This document shows, piece by piece, positions 1 to 58,806 of a DNA stretch of 64,000 nucleotides (position 1 is its first letter; every line of letters begins with the position of its first letter). Location of the stretch: IMG/VR virus record IMGVR_UViG_3300044712_002452, positions 75,336-139,335 of that record. The stretch is one strand, 5' to 3'. The position numbers were made by a program, and so were the translations under genes. The DNA is from a virus (lineage: Duplodnaviria; Heunggongvirae; Uroviricota; Caudoviricetes). The notes below the pieces were generated by a model. The model did not search any database, had not been told where the DNA came from, and worked only from the letters and a program-made list of their open reading frames with translations.

Positions 1-199
1 ATACTACATCTATTTTCATTTGATCGATAGTATCTCGGAGAACCGTTAAGAGTTCAATAACTTCTTTTTTCGCTTCTTCGTTTTTAAGCTCAACGGCATT
101 AGTCACCAACATTTCAAGGACTTGTTTAGAACCAGGTGTCAAATGCATTGTTTCAAAACCCAAATCGATGATTTTTTGAATAAACTGTTGTTCAGTCAT
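1..199 (-). CDS. hypothetical protein, partial (N-terminal part in window, gene continues past position 1)
   Basis: Minus-strand ATG at 199..197 gives MTEQQFIQKIIDLGFETMHL..., open to the window edge. The dNMP-kinase gene stop lies 5 nt upstream. Confidence 0.4.
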   Translation of the reverse strand, partial: MTEQQFIQKIIDLGFETMHLTPGSKQVLEMLVTNAVELKNEEAKKEVIELLTVLRDTIDQMKIDVV

Positions 200-203
200 G
201 ACG

Positions 204-965
204 TTAATTTTTCATTTTTAACAGATGCCTATGAACACCGGTTACTTGTGTATAAAGGTCTTTTAAAGAACCCGTGTTATCTATGTACAAATCAAATCTC
301 AAATGATCAATAGCTGTCTCGGATTCATGCTTTTGAGCATATTGATCACCGATGTTGCGATTGACCCGAAGCGTGAAGCTATTTTTTCGCTTTTTTACCG
401 CTTCGTATTCATTGGGAAAACGTAAATCCGAAATTATCCAATTAGGAAAATCACAATTAGCGTAATCAAAGTCATTTTCCGTATAGGATACTCTTTTTGA
501 AGGATTCAGGGCTAAGTATTGAGCAAACAATACATTCACCCAGGCGTCTTGATGCAAGTGATTCCGAATGGCATCAGTGCCCAGCTTTTGCAAGAATTCC
601 CGGTAGGTCATATTGCGCTTTTTTTCAAAAATTTTACCGGGAATTACGCGAAGCTCATCTGGGATATCCCATACTTCAGGTAAACTGGCTTTTTTGAATT
701 CCTGAGATTCAAAGCAAGATTCATCCACATTGAGCATCAGGGCCGCCACTTTTTTTACACCCGCCGCAAATTTTTTGATTACGAACGGGTTTTCTAAAGT
801 GCTATACGGGTCAATTCCCGTTTCCATTCGTTGTAAAGCATCCTGGTAGTCTTCATAACTGGGTTTTAAATTCAGATCAGGATTACTCAAATTAAAAAGA
901 TATTGTAGCATAGATGCCACGGTGTCTTTTCCGGATCCCATATATCCGGATATCGCAATAATCAT
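204..965 (-). CDS. P-loop kinase, deoxynucleoside-monophosphate kinase-like
   Basis: N-terminal Walker A, IAISGYMGSGKDT, resembles the T4 gp1 dNMP kinase start. 253 aa. Adjacent to dCTP deaminase. Confidence 0.55.
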   Translation of the reverse strand: MIIAISGYMGSGKDTVASMLQYLFNLSNPDLNLKPSYEDYQDALQRMETGIDPYSTLENPFVIKKFAAGVKKVAALMLNVDESCFESQEFKKASLPEVWDIPDELRVIPGKIFEKKRNMTYREFLQKLGTDAIRNHLHQDAWVNVLFAQYLALNPSKRVSYTENDFDYANCDFPNWIISDLRFPNEYEAVKKRKNSFTLRVNRNIGDQYAQKHESETAIDHLRFDLYIDNTGSLKDLYTQVTGVHRHLLKMKN

Positions 966-969
966 AGGT

Positions 970-1530
970 TTAATTTTTGAAGTTTAGATGCATTTTACTT
1001 TCTTGAACGCCCGTTTGATTGTGGTATTTACTACCGGTTTTTTGATCGTAGCTTTCTTCAATAACGCCTTCGACCCGAGCAAATTCCAGTTGGCAGATTT
1101 TCATGTTAGGGTACACTTTAATTGGAACGGTGGCCACCAATTCAAGCACTAATGAACCGGTAAAGCCGGGGTCAATAAAACCCGCCGTAACATGCACAAA
1201 TAGACCTAATCTACCCAATGAACTTTTTCCTTCTACTTTGGCCCGTATATTACCTTTTACGCCAATTTTTTCGTTGCAGGCGTAGAGATACACGTTACCG
1301 GGCTCCAGTATATACCCTTCGTCTGGAATAACGAATTCTTTACAAATATTTGGCTTCCGTGGATCCAGATGAGGTATTTTATCATCATTTTTTTGACGCA
1401 TGTAAACTTTAAATGCGGGCGCCAGGGTTAGATCTACGCTGCAGGGATTGATGTGGTCCAGATTTAAACCGTCAATAATGATATTGCCGGCCATGATTTC
1501 TTTTTTGATAATGGAGTCTGATAATATCAT
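970..1530 (-). CDS. dcd: dCTP deaminase (Dcd/dUTPase superfamily)
   Basis: 186 aa beginning MILSD.II. The GKSSLGRLG..H...GFIDPGF pattern is typical of Dcd. Confidence 0.7.
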   Translation of the reverse strand: MILSDSIIKKEIMAGNIIIDGLNLDHINPCSVDLTLAPAFKVYMRQKNDDKIPHLDPRKPNICKEFVIPDEGYILEPGNVYLYACNEKIGVKGNIRAKVEGKSSLGRLGLFVHVTAGFIDPGFTGSLVLELVATVPIKVYPNMKICQLEFARVEGVIEESYDQKTGSKYHNQTGVQESKMHLNFKN

Positions 1531-2189
1531 GATTTTGATTCGGTTAGGTTTGCACCCAATTTGTTTAAAAATGTGATTTTCTTCATCTTGTACGCTTTTG
1601 GAGCGGTTCTTTGTGGAGTAGACCCAGTTGGATCTGTATAGAATACAGTCACCAAACCGTTGATGTCGGCAAATTTTTCTACATACAAAGATTTTCGGGT
1701 AACTACTTCTTTAACTTTGATATGCGCTTGTTTAGGATCATTCAACAGGACAACGCTGCTTAGATTATGTTCTTTGATCCAATCGATTACCGCTTCTCCG
1801 TGCCGCCCATTAATGATAGCATTGGTAGCTGTTTGTTGACTCAGCTTTTCAAAAGATATCCAAAAATTGAGATCATAAGAACCGCTTCGCAATGTTGAAC
1901 AAACCGGATTATTGGCATTTACACCATAATGATAATCCACTAAAATCATGAGTCCGCTTGGATCGCTATAGCCATTAAGAATATCAATTTTTATTTTTCC
2001 GACTCCCGGTATTTTGCTGATGGCGGTATAAGATCCATCGTGCATGTTCAAAATTTGCAAATCGCTATAAGTTTTTAATAGCTTGGTATGTTTTTCAAAA
2101 AAAGATTTATCGTTCGTAAATTCTTCAGCTTTTTTATAAGCCGATTTGAAAAGATTACGAACTTGATCTTTGGAAGAATATGTATCCAT
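1527..2189 (-). CDS. hypothetical protein in nucleotide-metabolism cluster
   Basis: 220 aa ORF translationally coupled to dcd (4-nt overlap). No recognisable motif. Confidence 0.5.
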   Translation of the reverse strand: MDTYSSKDQVRNLFKSAYKKAEEFTNDKSFFEKHTKLLKTYSDLQILNMHDGSYTAISKIPGVGKIKIDILNGYSDPSGLMILVDYHYGVNANNPVCSTLRSGSYDLNFWISFEKLSQQTATNAIINGRHGEAVIDWIKEHNLSSVVLLNDPKQAHIKVKEVVTRKSLYVEKFADINGLVTVFYTDPTGSTPQRTAPKAYKMKKITFLNKLGANLTESKS

Positions 2190-2210
2190 AGTTCATTTGA
2201 TTTTGTGAGT

Positions 2211-2426
2211 TTAACGCCAGATTTCAGTATTGTCGGATTTGGACTTTAATTTGATTAAACCTAATTGTTTCAGCTTATCAACTGTAGCTTTTTTTAGCTG
2301 AACGGGTTTGTCATAATCACTGTGTAACATATAGGATTTTTTTTCATTTTCACAGGTAATATGGATTTCGTGATCCCATAATAGTTTATCCAGTATTCGA
2401 AGCTGCTCGTTTGATAAAATAGACAT
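2211..2426 (-). CDS. hypothetical small protein
   Basis: 71 aa ORF in the same-strand gene array. Confidence 0.35.
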   Translation of the reverse strand: MSILSNEQLRILDKLLWDHEIHITCENEKKSYMLHSDYDKPVQLKKATVDKLKQLGLIKLKSKSDNTEIWR

Positions 2427-2429
2427 ATA

Positions 2430-2669
2430 CTACGTTTGTGATTTTTTAATGAGCCTTTTAACCAAGTCTTTAAAAGAGTTTCGACTTTTTCTACCGTAGC
2501 GTCTTTTATCATCACCGATTTTTTCAAGCTTAGCTTCCAAATTGTTGAAGAGTTCAATTCCGGATTGAGCTTCTTCTTTGCTATTCCATTCTAAAGCGTC
2601 GTTTAAATCAAATTTCGAGTATTCAATAGCCGCAGCTAATAAACGCGCTTCATCTTTTGTGATGTTCAT
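2430..2669 (-). CDS. hypothetical small protein
   Basis: 79 aa ORF, tightly packed. Confidence 0.4.
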   Translation of the reverse strand: MNITKDEARLLAAAIEYSKFDLNDALEWNSKEEAQSGIELFNNLEAKLEKIGDDKRRYGRKSRNSFKDLVKRLIKKSQT

Positions 2670-2679
2670 AAAATAATAT

Positions 2680-3105
2680 TTACAACGTTTTCAGTCTTTC
2701 CAATACATCTTTCCCAGTATGTCCATCAAAAGGATATTTTGCTGATTCGACTTCGGGTATTTTGAACAAATCCCAATCTTTTGCTTCGTAATGGTTAGAT
2801 ATTTGCCCTGTTGGAAGCATAGCGACAACAATAAACCACCCACCACCAAAACAAAGTTCACCGTCATGGTGTTTCCAAGACTTGTGTACATCATACATAG
2901 GTTGTTCTATGCTCCCATCAGGTTGATTGGTTCTGAATTTTGCCCACTCGTTGAATAGTGCAGCATTGTACACTTTTCTAAACTCATATAATTCGTCAAA
3001 AGTGTGATACCCGTCTGAAATTTTACCTTTCAAACCACCAACGCCTAAGCTATCGACTTCTCTTTGAACATTTGCCAAAAGTGTTTCTCTTAAATATTCA
3101 AGCAT
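2680..3105 (-). CDS. hypothetical protein
   Basis: 141 aa ORF. Confidence 0.45.
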   Translation of the reverse strand: MLEYLRETLLANVQREVDSLGVGGLKGKISDGYHTFDELYEFRKVYNAALFNEWAKFRTNQPDGSIEQPMYDVHKSWKHHDGELCFGGGWFIVVAMLPTGQISNHYEAKDWDLFKIPEVESAKYPFDGHTGKDVLERLKTL

Positions 3106-3107
3106 AT

Positions 3108-3350
3108 TTATATATTTTGCTCAGTTTTACAATACGGTATTCTTTTGAAGTTTAAATAACCTTTGGGTTTGTTCCAAATAAGCCCGATATAACCGGCGTA
3201 ATACCCCCAACAAACACCTATACCTAAAATCAAAACTTTACCAACCGCCGCTTTAACAAAAAATAGATATGGAGTAATTGCAAAATCTTCTTTATTTGTT
3301 CGGGTATCTTGAAACCCGCCAGTAAATTCAGGGGTGTACGGTTTGCTCAT
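3108..3350 (-). CDS. small membrane protein
   Basis: 80 aa with a hydrophobic helix, VLILGIGVCWGYYAGYIGLIW. Confidence 0.4.
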   Translation of the reverse strand: MSKPYTPEFTGGFQDTRTNKEDFAITPYLFFVKAAVGKVLILGIGVCWGYYAGYIGLIWNKPKGYLNFKRIPYCKTEQNI

Positions 3351-3403
3351 TTTCTTGCTTTTAATGATTTGAATTAGTTATTCAATACCCTTCCAACGTT
3401 GCT

Positions 3404-4012
3404 CTATAATAGGGTTAACAATTCGGGGTTCTCGTGAATGTTGCCGATGACTTCGGCATTTTCTTCTTTGGTCTCATTTCTATAATGCTCAAGTGTTTGC
3501 TTTAATGATTTTATGGCACCCATCAAAGAAGGTAATCTCATAGCTGCCAGTCTTCCAAGGTTAGCCAGTTCTTTATCAGTCCACTTTTTGTCAAACAATT
3601 TTTGAGGTGCGCGCTCTTGCCAAAACTTAGGTATATCCGGGTAATTCCCCGGCTTGTAGAGATACAGTCCAGCAAAAGCGGGGATCTTCTCTAGCGCTAC
3701 ATCTTTGAGGCTATCTGGCACGGCGTATGAAAAGTATTTGAGTCTGCCAAAGTATAGCTCTATGCCTGTCTTGCCGTTATAGAATACTTCGTTTATTCGT
3801 GCATGATGCTTTTTCTTAAAGTCTGCAAGCAAATCTGACCTACTTACCTTTATTTCGTAGCAATGAGCATATCCTGAATTGGTTACGGCTAGCACATCAG
3901 CCTCAAAGCTTACCAAGCCGCTTATCTCTGTTACATTTGGCACTATGATAGTAGACCTGATTTTATAGCTTCCCATGATAGCCAGCTCTATATCTAAACA
4001 ATTCACTTTCAT
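3404..4012 (-). CDS. PD-(D/E)XK nuclease-like protein
   Basis: EADVLAV...CYEIKVSRSDL matches the D...E-x-K core of the restriction-endonuclease-like fold (MmcB-like). Confidence 0.45.
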   Translation of the reverse strand: MKVNCLDIELAIMGSYKIRSTIIVPNVTEISGLVSFEADVLAVTNSGYAHCYEIKVSRSDLLADFKKKHHARINEVFYNGKTGIELYFGRLKYFSYAVPDSLKDVALEKIPAFAGLYLYKPGNYPDIPKFWQERAPQKLFDKKWTDKELANLGRLAAMRLPSLMGAIKSLKQTLEHYRNETKEENAEVIGNIHENPELLTLL

Positions 4013-4027
4013 AACTCTATTTTAGAA

Positions 4028-4453
4028 TTAACACCAATAACTGATTTTCCAATAATACCCGTTGTTTAAAGGGAAAAGTAAATACCCTGAATAATTATCT
4101 TCACAAGCCCCGGTTTTTTGCCAAACTAAACTGTGAAACTCACCATTATCATCTTGCCTCATGTAATCAATATCTTCTCCAAAAAGTACAGAATAAGAGA
4201 CATCACCTTTTATTTTGTAGAAATCGTGACTTGGATAAAAACAACTTTTATAATCTGATTTTTCAACTTGCACATAACCTTCGTGTTTCCATTCAATGCC
4301 ATCAAGTTCCATTAAATCAAAGTCGTAGTTAATATGCTTTTTTACAAATTCGATAGCTTCTTCGTTTAACTTGGCGATACGCTCATATTCGATTTTCATG
4401 GTTTGGTGAAATTCAGACAAAGCTTTTTCAACTTGTTCTTTTGTGGGTGTCAT
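4028..4453 (-). CDS. hypothetical protein
   Basis: ORF 4028..4501. The start is probably the internal Met of MTPTKEQ, which avoids a long overlap. Confidence 0.4.
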   Translation of the reverse strand: MTPTKEQVEKALSEFHQTMKIEYERIAKLNEEAIEFVKKHINYDFDLMELDGIEWKHEGYVQVEKSDYKSCFYPSHDFYKIKGDVSYSVLFGEDIDYMRQDDNGEFHSLVWQKTGACEDNYSGYLLFPLNNGYYWKISYWC

Positions 4454-4457
4454 AACT

Positions 4458-4766
4458 CTATTTTGTTTTAAACTGAGAAAAATCGAGTGTAGGGTTTGCA
4501 ATTTCTATTTCACTCTCACTTAAACGCCATTTATCTCCATTTTCATTTTGACACAAAAAACTGTTTTGTAATTCATCACAGTCAATTATTTTCACAATTT
4601 CTTCTATATCAAACCCATGTGCGCTTATACAATCTGTTACAATTACTATCATTCCGATTTCAAATTTTTTCCTTTTCTCATTCACCAATTCCAGTAGCCG
4701 ACTGAAAGATATTTGCTCACTCTCATACTCATTCAGCCATTGTCTTAGTTGTGTTGCTGTTATCAT
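4458..4766 (-). CDS. hypothetical protein (MITATQL N-terminus)
   Basis: ATG at 4766 overlaps the TGA stop of the upstream small gene (ATGA). The -1 frame stays open upstream to 4832. Confidence 0.45.
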   Translation of the reverse strand: MITATQLRQWLNEYESEQISFSRLLELVNEKRKKFEIGMIVIVTDCISAHGFDIEEIVKIIDCDELQNSFLCQNENGDKWRLSESEIEIANPTLDFSQFKTK

Positions 4767-5002
4767 TCGGATAATAGTTTGTTGTTTTGCAATATTTTTT
4801 TTCTTTCCCATCCTCCATTTGGCCTTTGACATTTACTACATTTGCATTTGCCTATAACAAATCTGCCGCATCCAATAGCGTATGTATAGCCTGCATCAAT
4901 TCTTTGTTGATACCAACCTTTATCTATCCAAGATTGCAATGTTGATGGCTTTACTATTCTTGTAGTACCTGAATAATTAACTAGTTGTGTTGCTGTTATC
5001 AT
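4746..5002 (-). repeat. 21-bp direct repeats TAGTTGTGTTGCTGTTATCAT (4746-4766 and 4982-5002) flanking the small Cys-rich gene
   Basis: Exact 21/21 match. Each copy encodes MITATQL at the start of a gene. Confidence 0.7.
4763..5002 (-). CDS. small Cys-rich zinc-ribbon-like protein, paralog A
   Basis: C-terminus WIDKGWYQQRIDAGYTYAIGCGRFVIGKCKCSKCQRPNGGWERKK. About 80% identical to the protein at 41815..42045. Start is either MITATQL (5002) or MKK (5026). Confidence 0.5.
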   Translation of the reverse strand: MITATQLVNYSGTTRIVKPSTLQSWIDKGWYQQRIDAGYTYAIGCGRFVIGKCKCSKCQRPNGGWERKKILQNNKLLSE

Positions 5003-5528
5003 TTGCTTTAGGTTTGATTTTTTCATTTACTTTTTTGATTATCGCCTCACCGAGATACTTTCGATATATCTCGGCTGTGGCTTGTCGGTTGGCATCCGCA
5101 GCCGCAGCAGCCCTCGCAGCCCACGAAGCAGCACTCGCAGCACTCGCAGTAGCCCACGAAGCAGCACTCGCAGCCCTCGCAGCCCAATCAGCAGCCGCAG
5201 TAGCCATCGTAGCCCCCCACGAAGCAGCACTCGCAGCAGCCATCGCCTCTTGCAATTCACGCTCTGTCGCTTTTCCTTCACCGTATGCTATGGCTGTATC
5301 TACGGCTTTTAGACTTCGTTCATCTTTCATTAGGTGTCTAACCGTGTTCGCAGCGTGTCCTGCGGCTAAGCATCTTAGTTGCATTGGCAGTTCTAATTTA
5401 TCTGCCAACCACCCCATCCAGTATCCTCTCTCGCACTCTTGTACTGCTTGCTCTATGGTTTTTTCGCCCACCCATTTACGGGCTTCGGAACAGGCGTTTA
5501 ATTCGGTTAGTAATTGTTGTAAATTCAT
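4977..5528 (-). CDS. hypothetical protein with Ala/Ser/Trp-rich tandem repeat
   Basis: 183 aa. Residues about 95-150 are imperfect AASAASWA repeats, encoded by 33-bp tandem DNA repeats at about 5100-5250. Confidence 0.5.
   Translation of the reverse strand: MNLQQLLTELNACSEARKWVGEKTIEQAVQECERGYWMGWLADKLELPMQLRCLAAGHAANTVRHLMKDERSLKAVDTAIAYGEGKATERELQEAMAAASAASWGATMATAAADWAARAASAASWATASAASAASWAARAAAAADANRQATAEIYRKYLGEAIIKKVNEKIKPKANDNSNTTS
5100..5250 (-). repeat. imperfect 33-bp tandem repeats (about 4 units) inside CDS 4977..5528
   Basis: Unit CACGAAGCAGCACTCGCAGC(A/C)CTCGCAG(T/C)AGCC starts at about 5122, 5155, 5185 and 5219. Confidence 0.6.
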
Positions 5529-5604
5529 TGTCCTTCTTTTTTCAGGTTAATAAATCCCTCTGTTGGGGGTTCAATCGGGTCGGGGTGGATGGAGTGTAGT
5601 TCTG

Positions 5605-6000
5605 CTAGAGCATAACTGTAATAAGATTGCCAAAACTTACCCCCCCCGAAAAACTCATAATTATTCCCGTTTGATTTTCATGAAATTTCGCCCAGTAATA
5701 CTTTCCCTCTACCCCCTCAAACGGCTTAGGTTCGGGGAGCAGGATGAGGTCGTATTCGCTTTTTATGCCTTGTTTACAATAATACCCATTATTACCTACG
5801 GGAACAGACTTGAAATTGCCTTCTTCGGTAACGTAGAAAATCACTCCCCGCTTCTCAAAATACTTCCACTCCACAGGCTTTCCCGTTCCCCTTTGCGCCA
5901 CCCTTTCAGGCTGCTTCAGTGCAATTTGAAGGTCAAAGTCAATGCACTCTTGTTGCGGTTCAATTGAGCCTAATCCTTCGTTTAGTCCTTCGTATGCCAT
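5605..6000 (-). CDS. hypothetical protein
   Basis: 131 aa ORF. Confidence 0.45.
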   Translation of the reverse strand: MAYEGLNEGLGSIEPQQECIDFDLQIALKQPERVAQRGTGKPVEWKYFEKRGVIFYVTEEGNFKSVPVGNNGYYCKQGIKSEYDLILLPEPKPFEGVEGKYYWAKFHENQTGIIMSFSGGVSFGNLITVML

Positions 6001-6011
6001 ATTATTTGTTT

Positions 6012-6320
6012 TTATAAACGGAAATATATATCTCTTAAAACTGCATCTATTTCAGAAGATTTTCCTTTTAAAGAGTTTAATAACAATTGAATATCTTCAA
6101 GCTCCTTTTTTGGGAGAAAAACAATTTCAGCTTTAAAAGTTATTATATCAGGGTGACGACTTTCATCTCGTTCAATAAAATTTTCACCAAGATCCTCAGA
6201 CAGCTTCTTGACTAGAGAATTGATTATTTCTTTTTTTATAATTTTTTCTCTATCACCTTTATGTAAATTAAGGTGCTCAAAACTTTGAGTATTTATTTGG
6301 TATTCGGCTTTTAGTCTCAT
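6012..6320 (-). CDS. hypothetical protein
   Basis: 102 aa ORF. Confidence 0.4.
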   Translation of the reverse strand: MRLKAEYQINTQSFEHLNLHKGDREKIIKKEIINSLVKKLSEDLGENFIERDESRHPDIITFKAEIVFLPKKELEDIQLLLNSLKGKSSEIDAVLRDIYFRL

Positions 6321-7092: not shown

Positions 7093-7323
7093 AACCTTTA
7101 GGGTTTTTTAAGGTCGCCCAAACCTGGATGATTAAATTCTGGAATTATCAATGTCTTTTTCTTTTTTGTATTTCTTTTTCCATTTTCTCAGATCATATAG
7201 AATAAAACCTGATAGCAAGGCTAATGTGGTGCACAAGTAAAACACAATGATTTGAGAAGATTCAGAACCAATAAAAGGTTCAGTTATCGGAGTTTCCATT
7301 TTCGTCAATTTTGAGTTTAAGGT

Positions 7324-10907: not shown

Positions 10908-10939
10908 TTCTACAAATATAGAATTGCCAAATCTACAAA
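10908..10939 (-). promoter_or_regulatory. two tandem TTTGTAGA(A/T)TT motif copies upstream of gene 10327..10881
   Basis: Minus strand reads TTTGTAGATTTGGCAATTCTATATTTGTAGAA. Confidence 0.45.
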
Positions 10940-10966
10940 CCAAATTTATATCTATAAAGTTAAACT

Positions 10967-13247: not shown

Positions 13248-14330
13248 CTACAAATCTACAATAAAATGATTTATTTGTAGATTTATATTCATCGTTTTAT
13301 GAAGTTGATTCAAGAGTTCTTTACGACAAATAGAACGTTTGATTTTTTCGGTACATTCAGCCATATCTTTAATCTTAAATTGATCATTGGGTACCGGTGG
13401 TTTAAAAATGATAGGTAGTACATTCAATTCGGATCGGTATTTTTCCATGGCTTGCAGGCCGGCTGCATCCGTATCCAGTAACGTAAACACCCGATTGTTG
13501 TACCGTTGTTTTAAACCTATAATAACGGGTTCTCCCAGCAAAGTAGTTTCGCTATGTGGCGCTACGAAATCAATGCCCAGGTTTAGTTCACTCATGGCCA
13601 TTCCATCTTTGAGAGAAGCCATAATCAAACAAGACTTGTTGATTTCAGGATTGAGCTGGTCATATCCTTGCAAATAATCGAATATCTTGATGAATTTTCC
13701 TTGCGATTTACCAGGGCTGTAAATTTTGTACAATTCTCCGTTTTTGGTAAAATATCCATAAATCAATCCCGCTTGTTCAGATACCGCAAAATAGTCTTCG
13801 TATTTATTTTTGTTCACCATCACATAATAACTCAGAGGTCGAACATTAAACCGATCTAAAGTAGCGGAACTGATTTTTGGTTTGGACCAAAATTGAATAT
13901 CCAGGCTATTCCAAGAACGTACTTGATAGGCTGAGACTTCGTATTTACTTGAAACCGTGGCGTTTTCCGCTTTGGGTGTGATGGGTTTAACACAACCGCC
14001 GCTACTCAGATATTTTTGATAATCCTGGATGATGTATTGAATAGTTAACCCATAGGAAAACGAGTGACCGTATTGTTGTTCAAGTAAATAGCGCACAAGC
14101 TGAACATGATTGCCTTTTTTTCCGGTCGAAAAATCATTCCATCGCCATTTTTGAATATCCGTCGCAAAGAAAATAAACATGCTGGGTTCATTGTCACCGG
14201 CATTAAAAAGGCTTTTCATCCTGGCCGTTTTCCCTTCGATAAGGGGTTCATCTAATCCGCAATATTGTTCATAAACCCAAGTTTCCGGTACTTCATCTAT
14301 ACTTAAAATGACGTGTTGTAACTGTAGCAT
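13248..14330 (-). CDS. DNA primase, TOPRIM domain
   Basis: TOPRIM-like E...DxD: LGIDFVAPHSE...VFTLLDTDAAG. Sits next to the DnaB-like helicase. Confidence 0.5.
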   Translation of the reverse strand: MLQLQHVILSIDEVPETWVYEQYCGLDEPLIEGKTARMKSLFNAGDNEPSMFIFFATDIQKWRWNDFSTGKKGNHVQLVRYLLEQQYGHSFSYGLTIQYIIQDYQKYLSSGGCVKPITPKAENATVSSKYEVSAYQVRSWNSLDIQFWSKPKISSATLDRFNVRPLSYYVMVNKNKYEDYFAVSEQAGLIYGYFTKNGELYKIYSPGKSQGKFIKIFDYLQGYDQLNPEINKSCLIMASLKDGMAMSELNLGIDFVAPHSETTLLGEPVIIGLKQRYNNRVFTLLDTDAAGLQAMEKYRSELNVLPIIFKPPVPNDQFKIKDMAECTEKIKRSICRKELLNQLHKTMNINLQINHFIVDL

Positions 14331-19126: not shown

Positions 19127-19743
19127 GATTGGTGTTGATTTAAAAGAATTTGTTGAACGTTTTCAGGTAATTCGTGTGGATACTGACCGTCTAAGATTCG
19201 TTGATACATATCGGCCAGCGGACTAATAATGGATTTACTGTCTTTGTCGTGTCGTAGTATAAAATACTGCGAACAATGACTAAAAGCAAAATCTTCCTGC
19301 GTTTTGATTTCCAGATACCAGGCTGTAGCCAGTAAAATGATATCCCATTCTACCATAGAGGTAAACATGGTAAAAAAGCTTTGAAAGGTTTTTTTGAGAA
19401 TCAGCGCCGGCTGCCGAGCATATTTACCACTGTCCAATAATTTTGCAGGCCACATCATCCGATAATATTCAATTAAAGCATCTGGAATTTCAATATCCGA
19501 AGGTTTCTTAGCTTTTGGCTTTTTGACTTTAATAGGCGGTGCCGGGAAGAGCTGACTTAACGCCAACTCCCCCTGTTCCGTAATGGAAGCACCTTGCATC
19601 AGACCCTTGTTTACCAAGGCGGCATACTCTTTATTAATGTCAATATCTAAGGGTTGAACTCTTTCTTTATAACACAACATCAGATAAATCTGGTTGGGTG
19701 TTAATTTGAAGGGTTTCGCACTTAGCAGAAATTTCTTTAGCAT
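19120..19743 (-). CDS. hypothetical protein
   Basis: 207 aa. Start uncertain; it may be the internal Met near 19680. Confidence 0.4.
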   Translation of the reverse strand: MLKKFLLSAKPFKLTPNQIYLMLCYKERVQPLDIDINKEYAALVNKGLMQGASITEQGELALSQLFPAPPIKVKKPKAKKPSDIEIPDALIEYYRMMWPAKLLDSGKYARQPALILKKTFQSFFTMFTSMVEWDIILLATAWYLEIKTQEDFAFSHCSQYFILRHDKDSKSIISPLADMYQRILDGQYPHELPENVQQILLNQHQSC

Positions 19744-20344
19744 ACAGGATTTCCAACTCTGTTAAGATTCTTTCGTAGATATTTTGGATAATAGGCTCTT
19801 CTTGGATCCAATCAGACCCAATCTGTAAATTGTGAATAACGGTACTGTGATCCCGGGGTTTCCGAAAGGAATTACCCAATTCTTTGAGTGAAGTAACCGA
19901 ACTGTACGTATGCGCAATCATAGCAAAACAATAGCGATAGTACAGGTATTCTCTTTCCCGATTGTAAGCCGTGACCATAATAGGGTTCAATCCATCTTGT
20001 GCAGCAATTTTTTCAACGATATCTCGAACTTGTTTGACCGGAAAGTGTTTTCTCGGTAATTCGGTCATTTTGTACCAAACTTCAGGGGCAATTCCGACTT
20101 TTTCAAAGAAAGCTTTTTTAAATTCACGGATCATTTTATCCGCCATGATGCGCTGATATTCACGGACTTCAGCCAGTTCAATATTGGTCAATTTGTCGGG
20201 ATCCGTTTTGAGTTTTTTAAACGAAAGCTCGTATTTAGGAATTCGTTCTTCTCGAGCCATTTTTACTTGATCCTGATAGTTTTGTCGTTGGTACCCTCTT
20301 CCGGGTACAAAAACCCGTTTTTTTCGTGTTCGGTGTAAGGTCAT
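19667..20344 (-). CDS. DnaA C-terminal (domain IV) DNA-binding domain homolog
   Basis: REYLYYRYCFAMIAHTYSSVTSLKELGNSFRKPRDHSTVIHN aligns with E. coli DnaA domain IV, R..ARQ.AMAL....[20 protein letters not shown]. ATG at 20344 verified; the promoter motif at 20391-20401 lies upstream. Confidence 0.6.
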   Translation of the reverse strand: MTLHRTRKKRVFVPGRGYQRQNYQDQVKMAREERIPKYELSFKKLKTDPDKLTNIELAEVREYQRIMADKMIREFKKAFFEKVGIAPEVWYKMTELPRKHFPVKQVRDIVEKIAAQDGLNPIMVTAYNREREYLYYRYCFAMIAHTYSSVTSLKELGNSFRKPRDHSTVIHNLQIGSDWIQEEPIIQNIYERILTELEILYAKEISAKCETLQINTQPDLSDVVL

Positions 20345-20390
20345 GGGGCATATTTTACTGATTGATAGATTAATTTTGTATATTTTATTA

Positions 20391-20425
20391 AGTCTACAAA
20401 TGTAACGGGTTATATTTGTAGAATT
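20391..20425. promoter_or_regulatory. divergent promoter pair carrying TTTGTAGA motif in both orientations
   Basis: AGTCTACAAATG faces the minus gene whose start is 20344. TATATTTGTAGAATT faces the plus gene whose start is 20466. TATATTTG matches the Bacteroidetes -7 element TAnnTTTG. Confidence 0.55.
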
Positions 20426-20465
20426 ATTTTTTTCACTTATTTTTTTTTGTCCAATACCTAATTCT

Positions 20466-20798
20466 ATGAGCGTGAATAACTTAACTGGATTTAAAGCTTG
20501 GTTGACTCCGGTTATCGGAAGTGTACTGTGGTTTTTTATTTGGAGAGATTTATCAGAGCTACGCAGCGATGTAAAAATTCTCTTAGAAAACAAAACCGAA
20601 TCCAGTGGAGAGATTAAAATACTCAAAGAAGATATGCAGCGGGTAAAGGACCGATTGTGGTACAATCCTTCTTCACAAACCCCAGTTTCACAGACGGCTT
20701 TTATCAATACACCCGATAATGCGCGTCAAAAAGGGCCTATGTATCCAAAATGTCGCAAAGGCTATGCGGCATTCATCCATAAAGAAGATGAAGATTAA
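20466..20798 (+). CDS. membrane protein, first gene of lysis cassette (holin-like candidate)
   Basis: N-terminal TM VIGSVLWFFIW. Sits directly upstream of spanin and lysozyme. The promoter motif TATATTTGTAGAATT lies 45 nt upstream. Confidence 0.4.
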   Translation: MSVNNLTGFKAWLTPVIGSVLWFFIWRDLSELRSDVKILLENKTESSGEIKILKEDMQRVKDRLWYNPSSQTPVSQTAFINTPDNARQKGPMYPKCRKGYAAFIHKEDED

Positions 20799-32612: not shown

Positions 32613-32634
32613 ACAACACCATTAAAAAACTCCG

Positions 32635-33143
32635 TGGAGCCGGGGGGAGTCGAACCCCCGTCTTGATAAGAATCCCCATTAGCATACTCTTACGTGCGTA
32701 GTACTGAAGTGTCCACCGCGCTACCTTCCGGCTTTGCTTTGTCTGTATTCTTCTGCACCGTAGTTAGGGCTGCTGGTTAAAGCAACCTCCACCACCAACT
32801 TTTGAGAAAAGCTGGAAAACGAATCGGAGTTAGCCTATCCGATAACCAGATTGTATGCCGAATCTCACGGCGCAACTTCGGTACTATTAGTTTGGCGTAC
32901 GCCACTCTCCCTACCAATCTGTATATAGTTTTGCGACTTTCTGTTCCACCACTGTCGCCGCGGGATCGCAAATTAAGCTGCTACAGCTTCATTCTGGAAG
33001 ATGCTTGCCAAGATGGCTTCACCTTCAGCGATGCGGGAAATCTTTGATTTGCCGTTTATAGAATTCCATGGATTGCAGGCACATGGCGCCCTTACACGAT
33101 GCTAACGTTGATCACGAATCAATCAAATTCCAAAGTCGGCCCC
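32635..33143 (-). ncRNA. ssrA: tmRNA (ssrA)
   Basis: On the minus strand the 5' end GGGGCCGACUUUGGAAUUUGAUUGAUUCGUG parallels the E. coli tmRNA 5' end. The 3' end GACGGGGGUUCGACUCCCCCCGGCUCCA has a T-arm plus acceptor, and the 7-bp acceptor pairs GGGGCCG/CGGCUCC. An internal reading frame ends ...QNEAVAA-UAA, like YALAA. A rho-independent terminator follows at 32588-32612. Length about 509 nt; 5' end is less certain. Confidence 0.6.
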
Positions 33144-34698: not shown

Positions 34699-35050
34699 GG
34701 CGTAAATTTTGAGAATTAGAGATTTTTGTATCGATCGCGGGCATTGATGTCCAGCGGTTGATCTTTGCCGGCAACAAGCGCAGCGTAAATCCAAATGAAC
34801 AACCCTGCGCATAAAATAGTACCCGTTAATAAGTATTTAAGTTCCATAGGTGCTTTTTTTTGAATTGAAAGAATCTGAAACTTTGGTTTTTTGGGCGTTT
34901 TGTGCCCGGCGGTTGCGCCAGTCTATGCCGTATATAATATACCACAGGGCGCCGAGTAATGCAATCTTCATTTGGAGAGTTTTAGTCTACGAATATAAAT
35001 AAATCTACACAATAAATATGTAGATTTATTTAATTTTTTTTTGAAACGCG

Positions 35051-39334: not shown

Positions 39335-39518
39335 TACCGAGGACAGGATTCGAACCTGTATGCCGCACTTCTAGCATTTATCATTTCTGCCGACTTTCCA
39401 ATCCTAAGTAGGTCAGAATCTAGTTGTCCCACTGACTAATGGCTTTCATCAGATTTTTAATGCTTAGGGTATGGGGTGCTGCTGAATCTCATGCGTCTAC
39501 CAATTTCGCCACCTCGGC
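39335..39518 (-). tRNA. tRNA-Leu-like gene interrupted by an about 120-nt insertion
   Basis: 5' part GCCGAGGUGGCGAAAUUGGUAGACGCAUGAGAUUCAG matches the canonical tRNA-Leu start (acceptor, D-arm, CAG in the anticodon-loop position). 3' part ACAGGUUCGAAUCCUGUCCUCGGUA is a T-arm plus the acceptor CCUCGGU, complementary to GCCGAGG. The two parts are 184 nt apart. Confidence 0.4.
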
Positions 39519-48051: not shown

Positions 48052-48454
48052 AGCATTACGCTTTATCCCACTGCAGGGCTTCGGCTAATAGCACCAAAAC
48101 GCCGTACATAAAGACGTACTTTTTCATTGTACTCTTCATTTAAGTGAAACAATACGAACCTGTCAACGACCTTATTCTTTCAAGGCTCAACTTGTTGAGA
48201 CTTGAGTTACAGACATTGACCATAACTTTCCTAAAAAATCCTAAGCATTTGGTTTTCCCGGCAAACGGGCGCACGATTGGTTTGAAGGGTAGGGGGTAGG
48301 CCCCAAACATTTTTACCCCGGGGGGCTTTTTACTAGGTACCCCACACTGACTGGGGATTACAAAATTTTTCGGGGTAAAATTTTTTTTGGGGTGGTGAAA
48401 TAAAAAAGAGCTTCTTTTTGGGAAGCCCTTTTTCGGTGGTTGGTTTTCAGTTGA

Positions 48455-49252
48455 TCATAGGGAAATATCTTCTTTGTCCTGATTGGGATTTGAGATCAGG
48501 TTGCTGGGTAGGTATTGTGGATCGGCTTGTCCGGTGGTTTTATCGAACCATTCTTTGAGTCCGTAGTATCGGGTATCGCTAAAGAGTATGATGCTGTTCA
48601 GGGTACCGGCCAGTAGCTTTTGTCTTTTAGTATAGGCTTTTGGGTGTTTGAGCATATGCTCCGTTACGCGGCACATTTTATTCAGGCTCTTTTCCAGGCG
48701 GTATAGTTTGGAATGAAGGCTTCCGCCTCCTTGGGTGGGTTGGCTCAGGTGTTCGTTGAGTTCCGGGTATTGGGTGGTTACGATGCTCAGGATGTCTAAG
48801 GACGACATCATGATACCGCGTTCTTTGATGATCTTGTATAAGATGGATCCGTAGTAAAAGCGGGATTTGGTTTTGATGTCATTGAGTTCGGCTTGTACGA
48901 CGGCTATGTTGATATCCGGTGATGGGTTTGGAAGGTTGTCGGTTTCCGCCGGTTCGGTAGGGGGTACCGGACCGCAAGATTCAGTCGGTTCGTTTTTGGG
49001 TGTTTGTTCGGATGTGGTGGTAGGTATTTGCTTGGATGCGGCGATCAGGGCATTTCGGATTACGGTTGCCAGTTGCAGCTCACCATTTAACGCCTGGCTG
49101 CGGGCAATCAGGGGATTTATCAAATAGTCGATTTCTTGGATTTCCGTTTTCAGGGTGTCTATCTGCGCGTTGACTTTTTTTAAGACAAACCGAAACTCTT
49201 CGGGCGATGATTGATGGGGATGCTCACAAGCGGTAAATTTTGAAGTATTCAT
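48455..49252 (-). CDS. hypothetical protein (last minus-strand gene before the switch region)
   Basis: 265 aa with a predicted coiled coil. Promoter motifs at 49275-49300. Confidence 0.5.
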   Translation of the reverse strand: MNTSKFTACEHPHQSSPEEFRFVLKKVNAQIDTLKTEIQEIDYLINPLIARSQALNGELQLATVIRNALIAASKQIPTTTSEQTPKNEPTESCGPVPPTEPAETDNLPNPSPDINIAVVQAELNDIKTKSRFYYGSILYKIIKERGIMMSSLDILSIVTTQYPELNEHLSQPTQGGGSLHSKLYRLEKSLNKMCRVTEHMLKHPKAYTKRQKLLAGTLNSIILFSDTRYYGLKEWFDKTTGQADPQYLPSNLISNPNQDKEDISL

Positions 49253-49274
49253 GTTTTATACTTTAGGTGGAAAC

Positions 49275-49350
49275 AAATCTACAACTTAAATCTACATTTC
49301 CAAATTTATTTGTAGAATAATTTTGCGGTTTCAATTTAGTTTGTAGATTT
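49275..49350. promoter_or_regulatory. cluster of four TTTGTAGA-family motifs (two per orientation) at the edge of the switch region
   Basis: AAATCTACAAC and AAATCTACATTT on the minus side. TTTGTAGAATAA and TTTGTAGATTT on the plus side. Confidence 0.45.
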
Positions 49351-49418
49351 GCATCCAGCAATCGTGGGAGCTTAACCGGGGGCGGTTGAGATCCTTTATG
49401 TTGGGGTACAAGTTTCGT

Positions 49419-49452
49419 TAATTTTGTGTTTTAGGGACCGACCTGCGTTTTT
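49419..49452 (+). terminator. plus-strand rho-independent terminator inside the non-coding switch region
   Basis: GACCTGCG-ttttta-CGCGGGTC then TTTTTTTTG. No plus-strand CDS lies upstream of it. Confidence 0.5.
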
Positions 49453-50251
49453 ACGCGGGTCTTTTTTTTGCCTAAAAATCAAGTCTCTAAAATAATTTTG
49501 TAGATATAAAAACCGTTTGTAGATTTGTTGCCCAACATAGGATTGTTTATCAATCCATCGGTTGATGTATGTTCGGCTGCGCTATCGCCCCCGCTTTAAA
49601 ACTTGGTGACAAGTAGGGTTACGGGAATTCGGTAGGGTACCCGATGTCGGTTCTGCCGGCGCTTAAAGCACAAATTGAGGTACGTAAAATCCATGGGTCT
49701 GCTTTGATTAAAACATTATTCAAGGTTCGTTTCGGGGGAAACTAAGATTCATCTCTTGTAAAGGTTCACGGGTAAAACCGGGAACGGACAAACAAACTCT
49801 CTGAGGCTTTAAGGGTATATCAACCGCTGATCAAGCAACCGGGAAAAATTAAACCCGGTTGCTTTATACCAGGAGCGAACCCGCTCGTGTTAACCCTCGG
49901 TATATACTTCTTACAATAGGTCTTGTATGTTTTGAGTAAGGTTAGAAAAATTGACTGTATCCTTCGAATGTACTTGCTTTCAGGACCTATCCCACGCACG
50001 CACACGCGTAAGCACCCATTCCAATCGTAAAAATTTTTCCCCGCCGGCATGGGCCGGACATAAAAAAGCCCCAAGATAAATAGCTCGGGGCGTATGGTGA
50101 TATCCTGAACTTCACCATTGACCTACAACAAAAATAAAAAAATAAATGTAGGAAAGAAAATTAATTCGCTTTTTATTGTAGATATATTTTGTAGATTAAA
50201 ATACTATTTGTATGTTCGTATTATCTATTCTCTGAATTCAAGTTAAAATCC

Positions 50252-50524
50252 ATGTCTAATACAAACCAACCTACGCAAGATCAGGCTGCCGATTCAAAAG
50301 TCAGTTTTGAACAGCAGTGTGCGCGTTTGGATCAGCAAATAGCTTTGCTATCGCGTATGAGCCAAATAGCCAAAGAAAAATCCCTGATCGAAGAATATCG
50401 AGTTAAAGAATTACGGGCGCGGATAGAATACATCCACTATACGCAGCCTAATCCTGAAGATCAGGATGCTAAAAAAACCGATGAGAAACCAACCGAAAAT
50501 CCAAACCCTACGCCTGAATCATGA
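50252..50524 (+). CDS. hypothetical protein (first plus-strand late-module gene)
   Basis: 90 aa. Promoter motifs at 50177-50201. Confidence 0.4.
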   Translation: MSNTNQPTQDQAADSKVSFEQQCARLDQQIALLSRMSQIAKEKSLIEEYRVKELRARIEYIHYTQPNPEDQDAKKTDEKPTENPNPTPES

Positions 50525-50934
50525 GCCAAATTGTTAGTCTAAAAAAAGAACTTTCCCGTTTTGATACCGTGGAATTGCAAATTATCGTCTTGACAGCCTT
50601 GGATAAAGTGCGCTTGTCAGCCGGGGAAATCACCTGTTTGACGTATCTGGCCATAGCTCAGCATGATTGCAAGCCGGGCGAAGAATTGCTAATATCTGAA
50701 TTTTCAGATTACATCAAAAACGAAGAGCAGTTTTCTTCTCATATGGTGGTTCGCAATATTTTCACTTCGCTGATTCGAAAAGGATACGTCCATCCGGATC
50801 CGGCCAGGTCCAAAAAGAAATTGCGCATGACCGATAAACTCGCGCTGGGCGCGTCTTCCGTGTGTATGCTCGATTACAAGTTTAAAACTTCACCCAACCG
50901 TGCTGTCACCCAAGAAACCCAAAGCGCGAACTAA
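50521..50934 (+). CDS. hypothetical protein
   Basis: 137 aa, translationally coupled. Confidence 0.45.
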   Translation: MSQIVSLKKELSRFDTVELQIIVLTALDKVRLSAGEITCLTYLAIAQHDCKPGEELLISEFSDYIKNEEQFSSHMVVRNIFTSLIRKGYVHPDPARSKKKLRMTDKLALGASSVCMLDYKFKTSPNRAVTQETQSAN

Positions 50935-58735: not shown

Positions 58736-58806
58736 TTTTTTGTAGAATTTGAAATTTATTCTACAAATGATTATATTATAATTGTAGATAAAACCAACTA
58801 TTTGAT

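Follow-up and report, generated by a model that had tools for sequence, protein, structure and literature searches.

A promoter-rich, gene-free gap with candidate small RNAs at the divergent junction of an environmental crAss-like phage

Introduction

CrAss-like phages are among the most abundant known viruses, and their gene regulation is barely understood; a transcription map exists for one member. In the crAss-like Cellulophaga phage phi14:2, abundant non-coding RNAs arise from long intergenic regions and are transcribed above most genes (bioRxiv 10.1101/2020.03.07.982082), and the middle and late genes are transcribed by the host RNA polymerase from sigma-A-like promoters (Drobysheva et al., bioRxiv 10.1101/2020.03.07.982082). 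The present work concerns a 1-kb gap, positions 49253-50251 of a 64-kb window (the whole stretch of 64,000 nucleotides analyzed here, from IMG/VR record IMGVR_UViG_3300044712_002452), which lies between two oppositely transcribed halves. Small RNAs are also familiar from other phages and prophages (lambda OOP, P22 sar and DicF), and moron-type cassettes carry their own promoter and terminator. To our knowledge, Bacteroidota have no characterized Hfq-type pathway.

The window is part of a 139-kb environmental crAss-like phage, and its layout is the mirror image of that of phi14:2, with early genes diverging from an operon directed toward the large terminase gene (TerL). The original prediction for this DNA described the gap as a non-coding switch region with promoter pairs, a terminated small RNA (sRNA) and about 600 nt of structured sequence, and proposed that it could hold a replication origin or a long structured non-coding RNA. 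Its observations were partly confirmed, with coordinates corrected, and its interpretation is partly supported. Our reading, with a probability of about 0.55, is that the gap is a non-coding cassette of promoters and small RNAs, specific to this lineage and lodged in a hypervariable slot where the two divergent halves of the phage meet.

Results

Coding status and composition of the gap

The gap is the longest intergenic stretch of the window free of open reading frames (ORFs). No ORF of 85 aa or more was found in it, the longest having 84 aa, and neither the JGI nor the Logan gene caller placed a single call there. Codon-usage scores were between -0.25 and 0.05 for the gap ORFs and at most 0.06 in 150-nt windows, while real genes score 0.22-0.35 (5th percentile 0.145). 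On all three counts, the gap is non-coding and its 84-aa frame an artefact, as had been proposed. A hidden gene with a reassigned stop codon, as known in crAss-like phages, was considered and rejected, since every frame contains several kinds of stop codon and single-stop recoding rescues no gap ORF; the codon-usage signal is also absent. A decayed gene was rejected too, tblastx being empty against related loci and against the remainder of the window.

Searching 49150-50350 against Rfam 15 gave no match at the gathering score; the best matches at E values up to 10 were terminator look-alikes, with 24 bits against a threshold of 52. ARAGORN called neither a tRNA nor a tmRNA in the gap. The GC fraction at 49500-50100 is 0.43-0.46, which is higher than in the AT-rich promoter flanks (0.28-0.39), as originally described, but equal to the coding average.

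Promoter cassettes

The gap holds four copies of a cassette of about 34 nt built on the motif TTTGTAGA(W)T (repeat families D1, D2, I1 and I2), one leftward and three rightward.

49274-49308, minus strand: P_L, leftward cassette for an ORFan gene; TTTG (49304->49301)-N19-TAGATTTG (49281->49274), exact consensus; alternative -7 box TAAATTTG at 49308->49301; TGTAGAT copies at 49277-49283 and 49290-49296
49309-49351, plus strand: P1, rightward cassette (repeat families D1, D2 and I2); TTTGTAGAA at 49309-49317; canonical -7 candidate TAATTTTG at 49318-49325; TTTG (49322-49325)-N18-TAGATTTG (49344-49351)
49493-49527, plus strand: P2, rightward cassette; TAATTTTG at 49493-49500, or TTTG (49497-49500)-N19-TAGATTTG (49520-49527); reference copy of the 34-nt family D1
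50176-50218, plus strand: P3, degenerate rightward cassette, 76% identical to P2 (family D1); two TGTAGAT copies 13 nt apart

The sigma-A promoter consensus of Bacteroidota is -33 TTTG / -7 TAnnTTTG, refined to TAHHTTTG (PMC6847099). P_L, P1 and P2 are exact TTTG-N18/19-TAnnTTTG sequences, and three of the nine exact TTTG-N17-21-TAnnTTTG sites on both strands of the 64 kb fall in this 1 kb. Boxes that satisfy TAHHTTTG are TAATTTTG (49318 and 49493), TAAATTTG (49308->49301) and TATTTTTG (50136->50129). Sigma-70 promoters were rejected as an alternative, with six matches against 4.6 expected by chance; the Bacteroidota consensus is the relevant one. P3 immediately precedes the first plus-strand gene (ATG at 50252) and matches in position the first-gene promoter of relatives.

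The two plus-directed motifs reported at 49309 (TTTGTAGAA) and 49340 (TTTGTAGAT) are both present, as copies of TTTGTAGA(W)T. The sites described as promoter pairs are the four copies of this cassette. The view of the gap as a promoter-bearing switch region between modules was borne out, as it is a cluster of divergent promoters at the module junction.

The motif is enriched well beyond the gap. TTTGTAGAT occurs eight times in 64 kb against 0.83 expected, with four of the eight in the gap, and TGTAGAT 18 times in the window against six expected, with seven in the gap. Although intergenic sequence makes up 17% of the window, 18 of its 33 TTGTAGA sites are intergenic (p = 1e-6), and the sites are often paired, in tandem or inverted. 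Among its 210 permutations, this heptamer ranks third by frequency in 1.9 Mb of related phages, and the closest relatives, L163 and L165, have tandem TTGTAGA shortly before their first plus-strand gene. The longer form (A/T)TTTGTAGA(A/T)TT would be either a phage-specific promoter extension or an operator. Examples across the window lie at 10909-10943, 13252-13282, 20393-20423, 35003-35025 and 58740-58789, with a tandem spacing of 13-23 nt.

Candidate transcription units

Strong intrinsic terminators divide the gap into short units, one of which runs from P1 to the terminator T1.

49352-49469, plus strand: sRNA1 candidate, about 110-140 nt depending on the start site; 5' stem-loop at 49354-49405, unpaired U-rich center, terminator
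49440-49469, plus strand: T1, intrinsic terminator, GACCTGCGT-TTTT-ACGCGGGTC followed by T8; 9 pairs (6 G-C), 4-nt loop

The order of P1 (49322-49351), an interval with no ORF and the Rho-independent terminator T1 (49440-49469) is the anatomy of a terminated sRNA gene. Since T1 can stop only transcripts that begin inside the gap, P1 and T1 define a putative RNA of about 110-140 nt. The transcription start may lie near 49330 or near 49357. The candidate folds with a minimum free energy of -43.3 kcal/mol (z = -4.15), with none of 200 shuffles as good, and the interval 49352-49469 contains neither an ORF nor an Rfam family. A clean plus-strand terminator had been placed at 49419-49452; it exists, but its true position is about 20 nt to the right. 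The sequence given for an sRNA of about 100 nt was correct, as was a promoter and terminator with no coding sequence between them; the size is put here at about 110-140 nt, and the element is absent from relatives. On anatomy alone, the sRNA1 candidate is credible.

The unpaired center of sRNA1 has a complementary site elsewhere in the window.

7300-7322, minus strand: possible sRNA1 target, the 23 nt just before the AUG of an ORF (7132-7299) for a 55-aa membrane protein

Positions 49413-49435 of sRNA1 are complementary to this site at 20 of 23 nt, and the ORF has a coding score of 0.23. The duplex has a predicted energy of -36.2 kcal/mol, which was equaled by none of 200 shuffles and by 8 of 400 real 48-mers (empirical p ~0.02). 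The start region of 7132-7299 is a lead to a possible sRNA1 target and not a result. Pairing between sRNA1 and the beginning of the P2 RNA (inverted repeat I10) was also considered and rejected, since a 9-bp match within 1 kb was judged to be no more than chance would give.

Beyond P2 lie 720 gene-free nt, in which the following features were located.

49533-49870, plus strand: candidate untranslated RNA from P2, about 340 nt if it ends at the 49833-49864 hairpin and longer if it reads through toward P3
49833-49864, plus strand: 11-bp hairpin, AAGCAACCGGG-N10-CCCGGTTGCTT followed by TATACC (inverted repeat I9); may be a weak terminator, T2
49880-50059, no strand assigned: spacer without unusual folding (z = +0.09 and -0.09), ending in a small CCGGC/GCCGG hairpin at 50044-50057
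50060-50136, minus strand: candidate minus-strand unit with a putative promoter, -7 box TATTTTTG (50136->50129), and a two-hairpin RNA of about 65 nt (50124->50060)

The CAACCGGG hairpin reported at 49838-63 exists, with its core at 49836-49861 and arms extending to 49833-49864; a further hairpin lies at 49872-49888. For the 571 nt from 49530 to 50100, the fold z-score was between -3.6 and -3.9 for the plus strand and between -2.7 and -4.6 for the minus strand; windows of the same size across the genome averaged -1.1 +/- 1.3, and 5 of 60 were at or below -3. The only locally exceptional part of the plus strand is 49760-49899 (z = -3.64, 0/200 shuffles as good), as 49530-49789 folds ordinarily (z = -1.4 and -0.6). 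The original description of roughly 600 nt of structured sequence was confirmed only in part, with 49530-49789 and 49880-50100 being ordinary (z from -1.4 to +0.1).

The GCCCC...GGGGC hairpin noted at about 50064-50090 is real and lies at 50068-50091, but it is a minus-strand terminator with its T-run at 50067-50060, not a plus-strand structure. This terminator, 50091->50060, consists of GCCCCGAG-N8-CTTGGGGC followed by T6, and the minus-strand unit folds with z = -3.38. Taken as a whole, the gap reads as two or three putative short units converging on an unstructured spacer, followed by the operon promoter.

Relatives and the variable slot

No homolog of the gap was detected with blastn and nhmmer in related loci (80, then 166), with tblastx in related loci, in the phage collection or in phi14:2, and using the flanking proteins as anchors revealed none. 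Exact-pattern scans of viral and genome collections were also empty. The region is thus absent from related phages, with neither nucleotide nor translated similarity in up to 166 related loci, an outcome that the original prediction had counted as speaking against it.

Two features lie between the gap and a conserved element, E, described below.

48455-49252, minus strand: 265-aa ORFan gene, coding score 0.238, predicted to be driven by P_L
48405-48440, no strand assigned: terminator hairpin between element E and the ORFan gene, found on the plus strand by the scan; a minus-strand T-run was seen by eye, and it may be bidirectional

In searches of 5.8 billion clustered proteins and of 1.84 billion representatives, the ORFan protein matched only itself. 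Downstream, the genes for the HU-like protein, p133, the exonuclease and TerL form a block that is collinear with that of relatives. Since element E is displaced to the left, the downstream block is collinear and the ORFan has no homolog, the ORFan gene and the gap together look like a lineage-specific insertion of about 1.8 kb between E and P3, in a hypervariable slot.

In relatives, the slot holds six tRNA genes (L163), bacterial-type genes (L164), another gene beside a 1-kb gap (L165) or extra genes (marine relatives). In L163, the closest long relative, the tRNA genes (3921-4388 and 5516-5589) are preceded by a TTGTAGA motif and a short hairpin terminator. In L164 (positions 1-6129; Logan SRR28678146, a 102-kb contig), whose TerL is 61% identical to that of the window, the crAss-like structural module abuts genes for a SusC-like TonB-dependent receptor, FecR and an ECF sigma factor, and the module boundary is at the same slot as the gap. 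Either this contig comes from a Bacteroidota genome with a crAss-like prophage integrated in it, or its assembly is chimeric.

Element E

A short non-coding element conserved in the clade was found by comparing the junction sequences of relatives, which were then aligned (A1-A4; A4 with 53 copies). It also occurs in L176-L252, and its marine-type core is present in at least 120 IMG/VR contigs.

48284-48356, plus strand: element E, clade-conserved and non-coding, GGGGGTAG..CCGGGGGGC..CTAGGTACCCCACAC; about 75 nt, rich in G-runs, outside the gap

Its sequence is strongly conserved, with the consensus GGGGGTA..GGGGAG(CAG)..TAG.TACC; it is always on the TerL strand and closely precedes the operon on the TerL side, by 90-250 nt from the first gene in relatives. 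The window copy is 900 nt to the left of the gap, with the ORFan gene and the terminator between, and its distance to TerL is 5.4 kb compared with 3.3-3.5 kb in freshwater relatives. This copy was detected by nhmmer with E = 2.5e-14 using a freshwater-relative profile that included it, but with only E = 0.15 using an independent marine-only profile (A1). Nothing in the gap matched the profile, and element E has no match in Rfam. No secondary structure had statistical support: RNAalifold gave no supported helix, and a best-stem test did no better than shifted controls (5.28 against 5.39), so E is treated as a sequence element only. An early promoter for a virion RNA polymerase, a pac or ori site and a leader RNA are possibilities for its role. 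After element E, at 48357-48400 (plus strand), the window contains three GGGG(T/A)...AAAATTTTT units (GGGGATTACAAAATTTTTC, GGGGTAAAATTTTTTTT and GGGGTGGTGAAATAAAAAAG); marine relatives have additional spaced G-runs there.

The phage and its other RNA genes

The window is identical to a stretch of the JGI metagenome contig Ga0451577_0000178 (139,318 bp) and of a Logan contig. Its right side encodes the crAss-type large terminase, the portal and capsid proteins (phrog_6681 and phrog_6547), with Crass_capsid seen in relatives. On its left side, genes for DnaB-like and DnaA_C-like proteins, helicases and nucleases lie in a minus-strand block. TerL is at most 63% identical to any of 5.8 billion proteins, and only 23-25% identical to that of gut crAss-like phages. 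The host is probably a member of the Bacteroidota, considering the crAss-like affiliation, the promoter type, the label "Cytophagia bacterium" on one TerL homolog and the SusC, FecR and ECF-sigma genes beside one relative.

Two further RNA genes were observed in the minus-strand block. A phage-encoded tmRNA of 512 nt with long insertions is at 32632-33143 (minus strand; Rfam 57 bits, E = 1e-19) and was missed by ARAGORN. At 39335-39518 (minus strand), a tRNA-like gene fits the tRNA model in its acceptor, D and T arms (32.5 bits) and was not called by ARAGORN; it has an insert of about 110 nt in the anticodon/variable region and could be an intron-containing or a disrupted tRNA.

Discussion

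In the reading preferred here, for which the non-coding RNAs of phi14:2 are a precedent, host RNA polymerase would make an sRNA of about 110-140 nt from P1 to T1, an untranslated RNA from P2 that would measure at least about 340 nt, and perhaps a minus-strand RNA of about 65 nt ending at 50060. The middle/late operon (HU-like protein, exonuclease, TerL and portal) would have P3 as its ancestral promoter. A common promoter or operator motif links the units. The TTTGTAGA pairs would probably double as operator sites for a phage regulator, coupling the promoters to the phage programme; the obvious candidate is a conserved winged-helix-like protein of 137 aa encoded two genes downstream (50521-50934). 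The sRNAs would most likely base-pair with phage or host mRNAs, and the sole concrete candidate is occlusion by sRNA1 of the start region of ORF 7132-7299.

Several points weigh against this reading. The shared TAGATTTG box has G at -10 and thus violates TAHHTTTG, and this base is almost never seen at -10 in Flavobacterium johnsoniae promoters (PMC6847099). Since TAGATTTG breaks the refined consensus while each cassette holds an overlapping canonical box (TAATTTTG or TAAATTTG), the predicted start sites can be placed only to within about 25 nt, and a part of the cassettes may act as operators instead of promoters. The sole further copies of the gap are identical to it, leaving no conservation or covariation signal, and expression of the units is predicted throughout. 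In addition, the P2 RNA candidate has no clear 3' end, the match of sRNA1 to its target is statistically weak (BLAST E ~1), and the winged-helix-like protein as regulator of the TTTGTAGA sites is a guess.

The gap could instead be mostly non-functional filler, made of recombination debris, duplicated cassettes, stray terminators and a decayed or foreign fragment, with only P_L and P3 having a role. Its absence from all relatives and a slot content that differs in every lineage would fit this view, as would the random-like folding of 49530-49789 and 49880-50100 and a whole-region z-score equaled by several coding windows. We still consider it unlikely: phage genomes are compact, yet this is the longest gene-free stretch of the window, three promoter copies retain a perfect consensus, the perfect terminator T1 would have no other transcript to stop, and neither tblastx nor codon usage left a trace of a decayed gene. 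It seems slightly less likely that the main product is the P2 RNA of 0.34-0.7 kb, either as a long structured non-coding RNA or as a cis-acting leader, for example in antitermination, of the middle/late operon. A perfect promoter ahead of 720 gene-free nt, the global fold (z = -3.6 to -3.9) with its central domain (z = -3.64) and the precedent of phi14:2 all speak for such a product. However, it has no Rfam family and no homolog, its z-score falls in a tail that coding windows also reach, the minus strand folds comparably well and most sub-domains are ordinary, so the long structured RNA of the original prediction was not supported. As for a leader, a continuous transcript into the operon is made less likely by the 49833-49864 hairpin and by the terminator that faces it at 50091-50060, and relatives run the same operon without it.

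A more ambitious version would make the cassette the first source of crAss-like phage regulatory RNAs with a definable mechanism, where sRNA1 would act in trans as an antisense RNA masking the 23 nt before the start codon of 7132-7299, 42 kb away, and the transcript from P2 would be a long non-coding RNA of the phage, analogous in function to those of phi14:2. Such a control mode, if true, would fit a host phylum in which translation starts without Shine-Dalgarno pairing, but we regard this version as distinctly improbable. Least probable of all is a replication origin, whether iteron-type, with the phage DnaA-domain-IV protein (19667-20707) acting on TGTAGAT repeats by the AT-rich tract 50100-50250, or transcription-primed from P2. 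The phage encodes DnaB-like and DnaA_C-like proteins, eight TGTAGA copies flank the AT-rich tract (28% GC), TGTAGATAW resembles by inspection the reverse complement of a DnaA box at seven of nine positions, and origins of Carjivirus communis are predicted at the start of the forward module (PMC10983915). Cumulative GC skew also reaches its lowest value at about 44-48 kb and the sign of the AT skew flips near 50 kb, but this turn falls exactly on the switch of coding strand and is therefore uninformative. DnaA boxes number 21 against 18.7 expected, with no cluster and none in the gap, which has no iterons or tandem repeats besides the promoter motif. That motif recurs in intergenic sequence throughout the genome and sits at expected promoter positions, and the AT-rich tract doubles as the P3 promoter. 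Moreover, the segment is absent from relatives with the same replication genes, whereas one would expect an essential origin to keep its position; what is conserved at this junction is element E. The origin proposed in the original prediction thus found no support.

If the cassette reading holds, the window adds an example of predicted stand-alone small transcription units driven by host-type promoters. It also adds a phage-wide promoter/operator motif, TTTGTAGA(W)T, common to related phages, and presents the junction of the early and middle/late blocks as a hypervariable cargo slot adjoined by a short, widely conserved element. For understanding the clade, element E is a better target than the gap; the more general finds are element E, the TTTGTAGA motif and the tmRNA score of one phi14:2 long RNA. 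This score concerns positions 4031-4502 (plus strand) of phi14:2 (L167, NC_021806), the "g005-g006 junction", which gave a full-length match to the Rfam tmRNA model with 46 bits against a gathering score of 47 (E = 2.6e-16). The junction RNA is one of two abundant phi14:2 long RNAs that were left unexplained and not called tmRNA (bioRxiv 10.1101/2020.03.07.982082). The window has a tmRNA of its own, outside the gap (32632-33143).

Compared with Bacteroidota sigma-A promoters, the boxes of the gap differ in sitting inside a phage-specific repeat, TTTGTAGA(W)T, that also occurs in operator-like inverted pairs. T4 oriF and oriG, the T7 primary origin and ColE1 RNA II/RNA I are transcription-activated or iteron-type origins; the gap shares with them a promoter, several hundred untranslated nt, an AT-rich tract, short repeats and a skew turn, but its repeats are genome-wide promoter motifs, and it lacks DnaA boxes and positional conservation. 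The phi14:2 phage and the phage of the window are both crAss-like, with a Bacteroidota host (probable for the latter) and long gene-free stretches near the junction of the early and TerL blocks. However, the gap has no sequence similarity to phi14:2, the phi14:2 RNAs lie 5-7 kb inside the early block instead of at the divergent junction, and those of the gap are predicted. With regard to lambda OOP, P22 sar, DicF and the morons, sRNA1 has no homology to any described sRNA in Rfam and its target is a weak lead, but it shares with them a stand-alone promoter, an RNA of about 100 nt with a 5' hairpin, an unpaired center and a Rho-independent terminator, and its location in an accessory segment.

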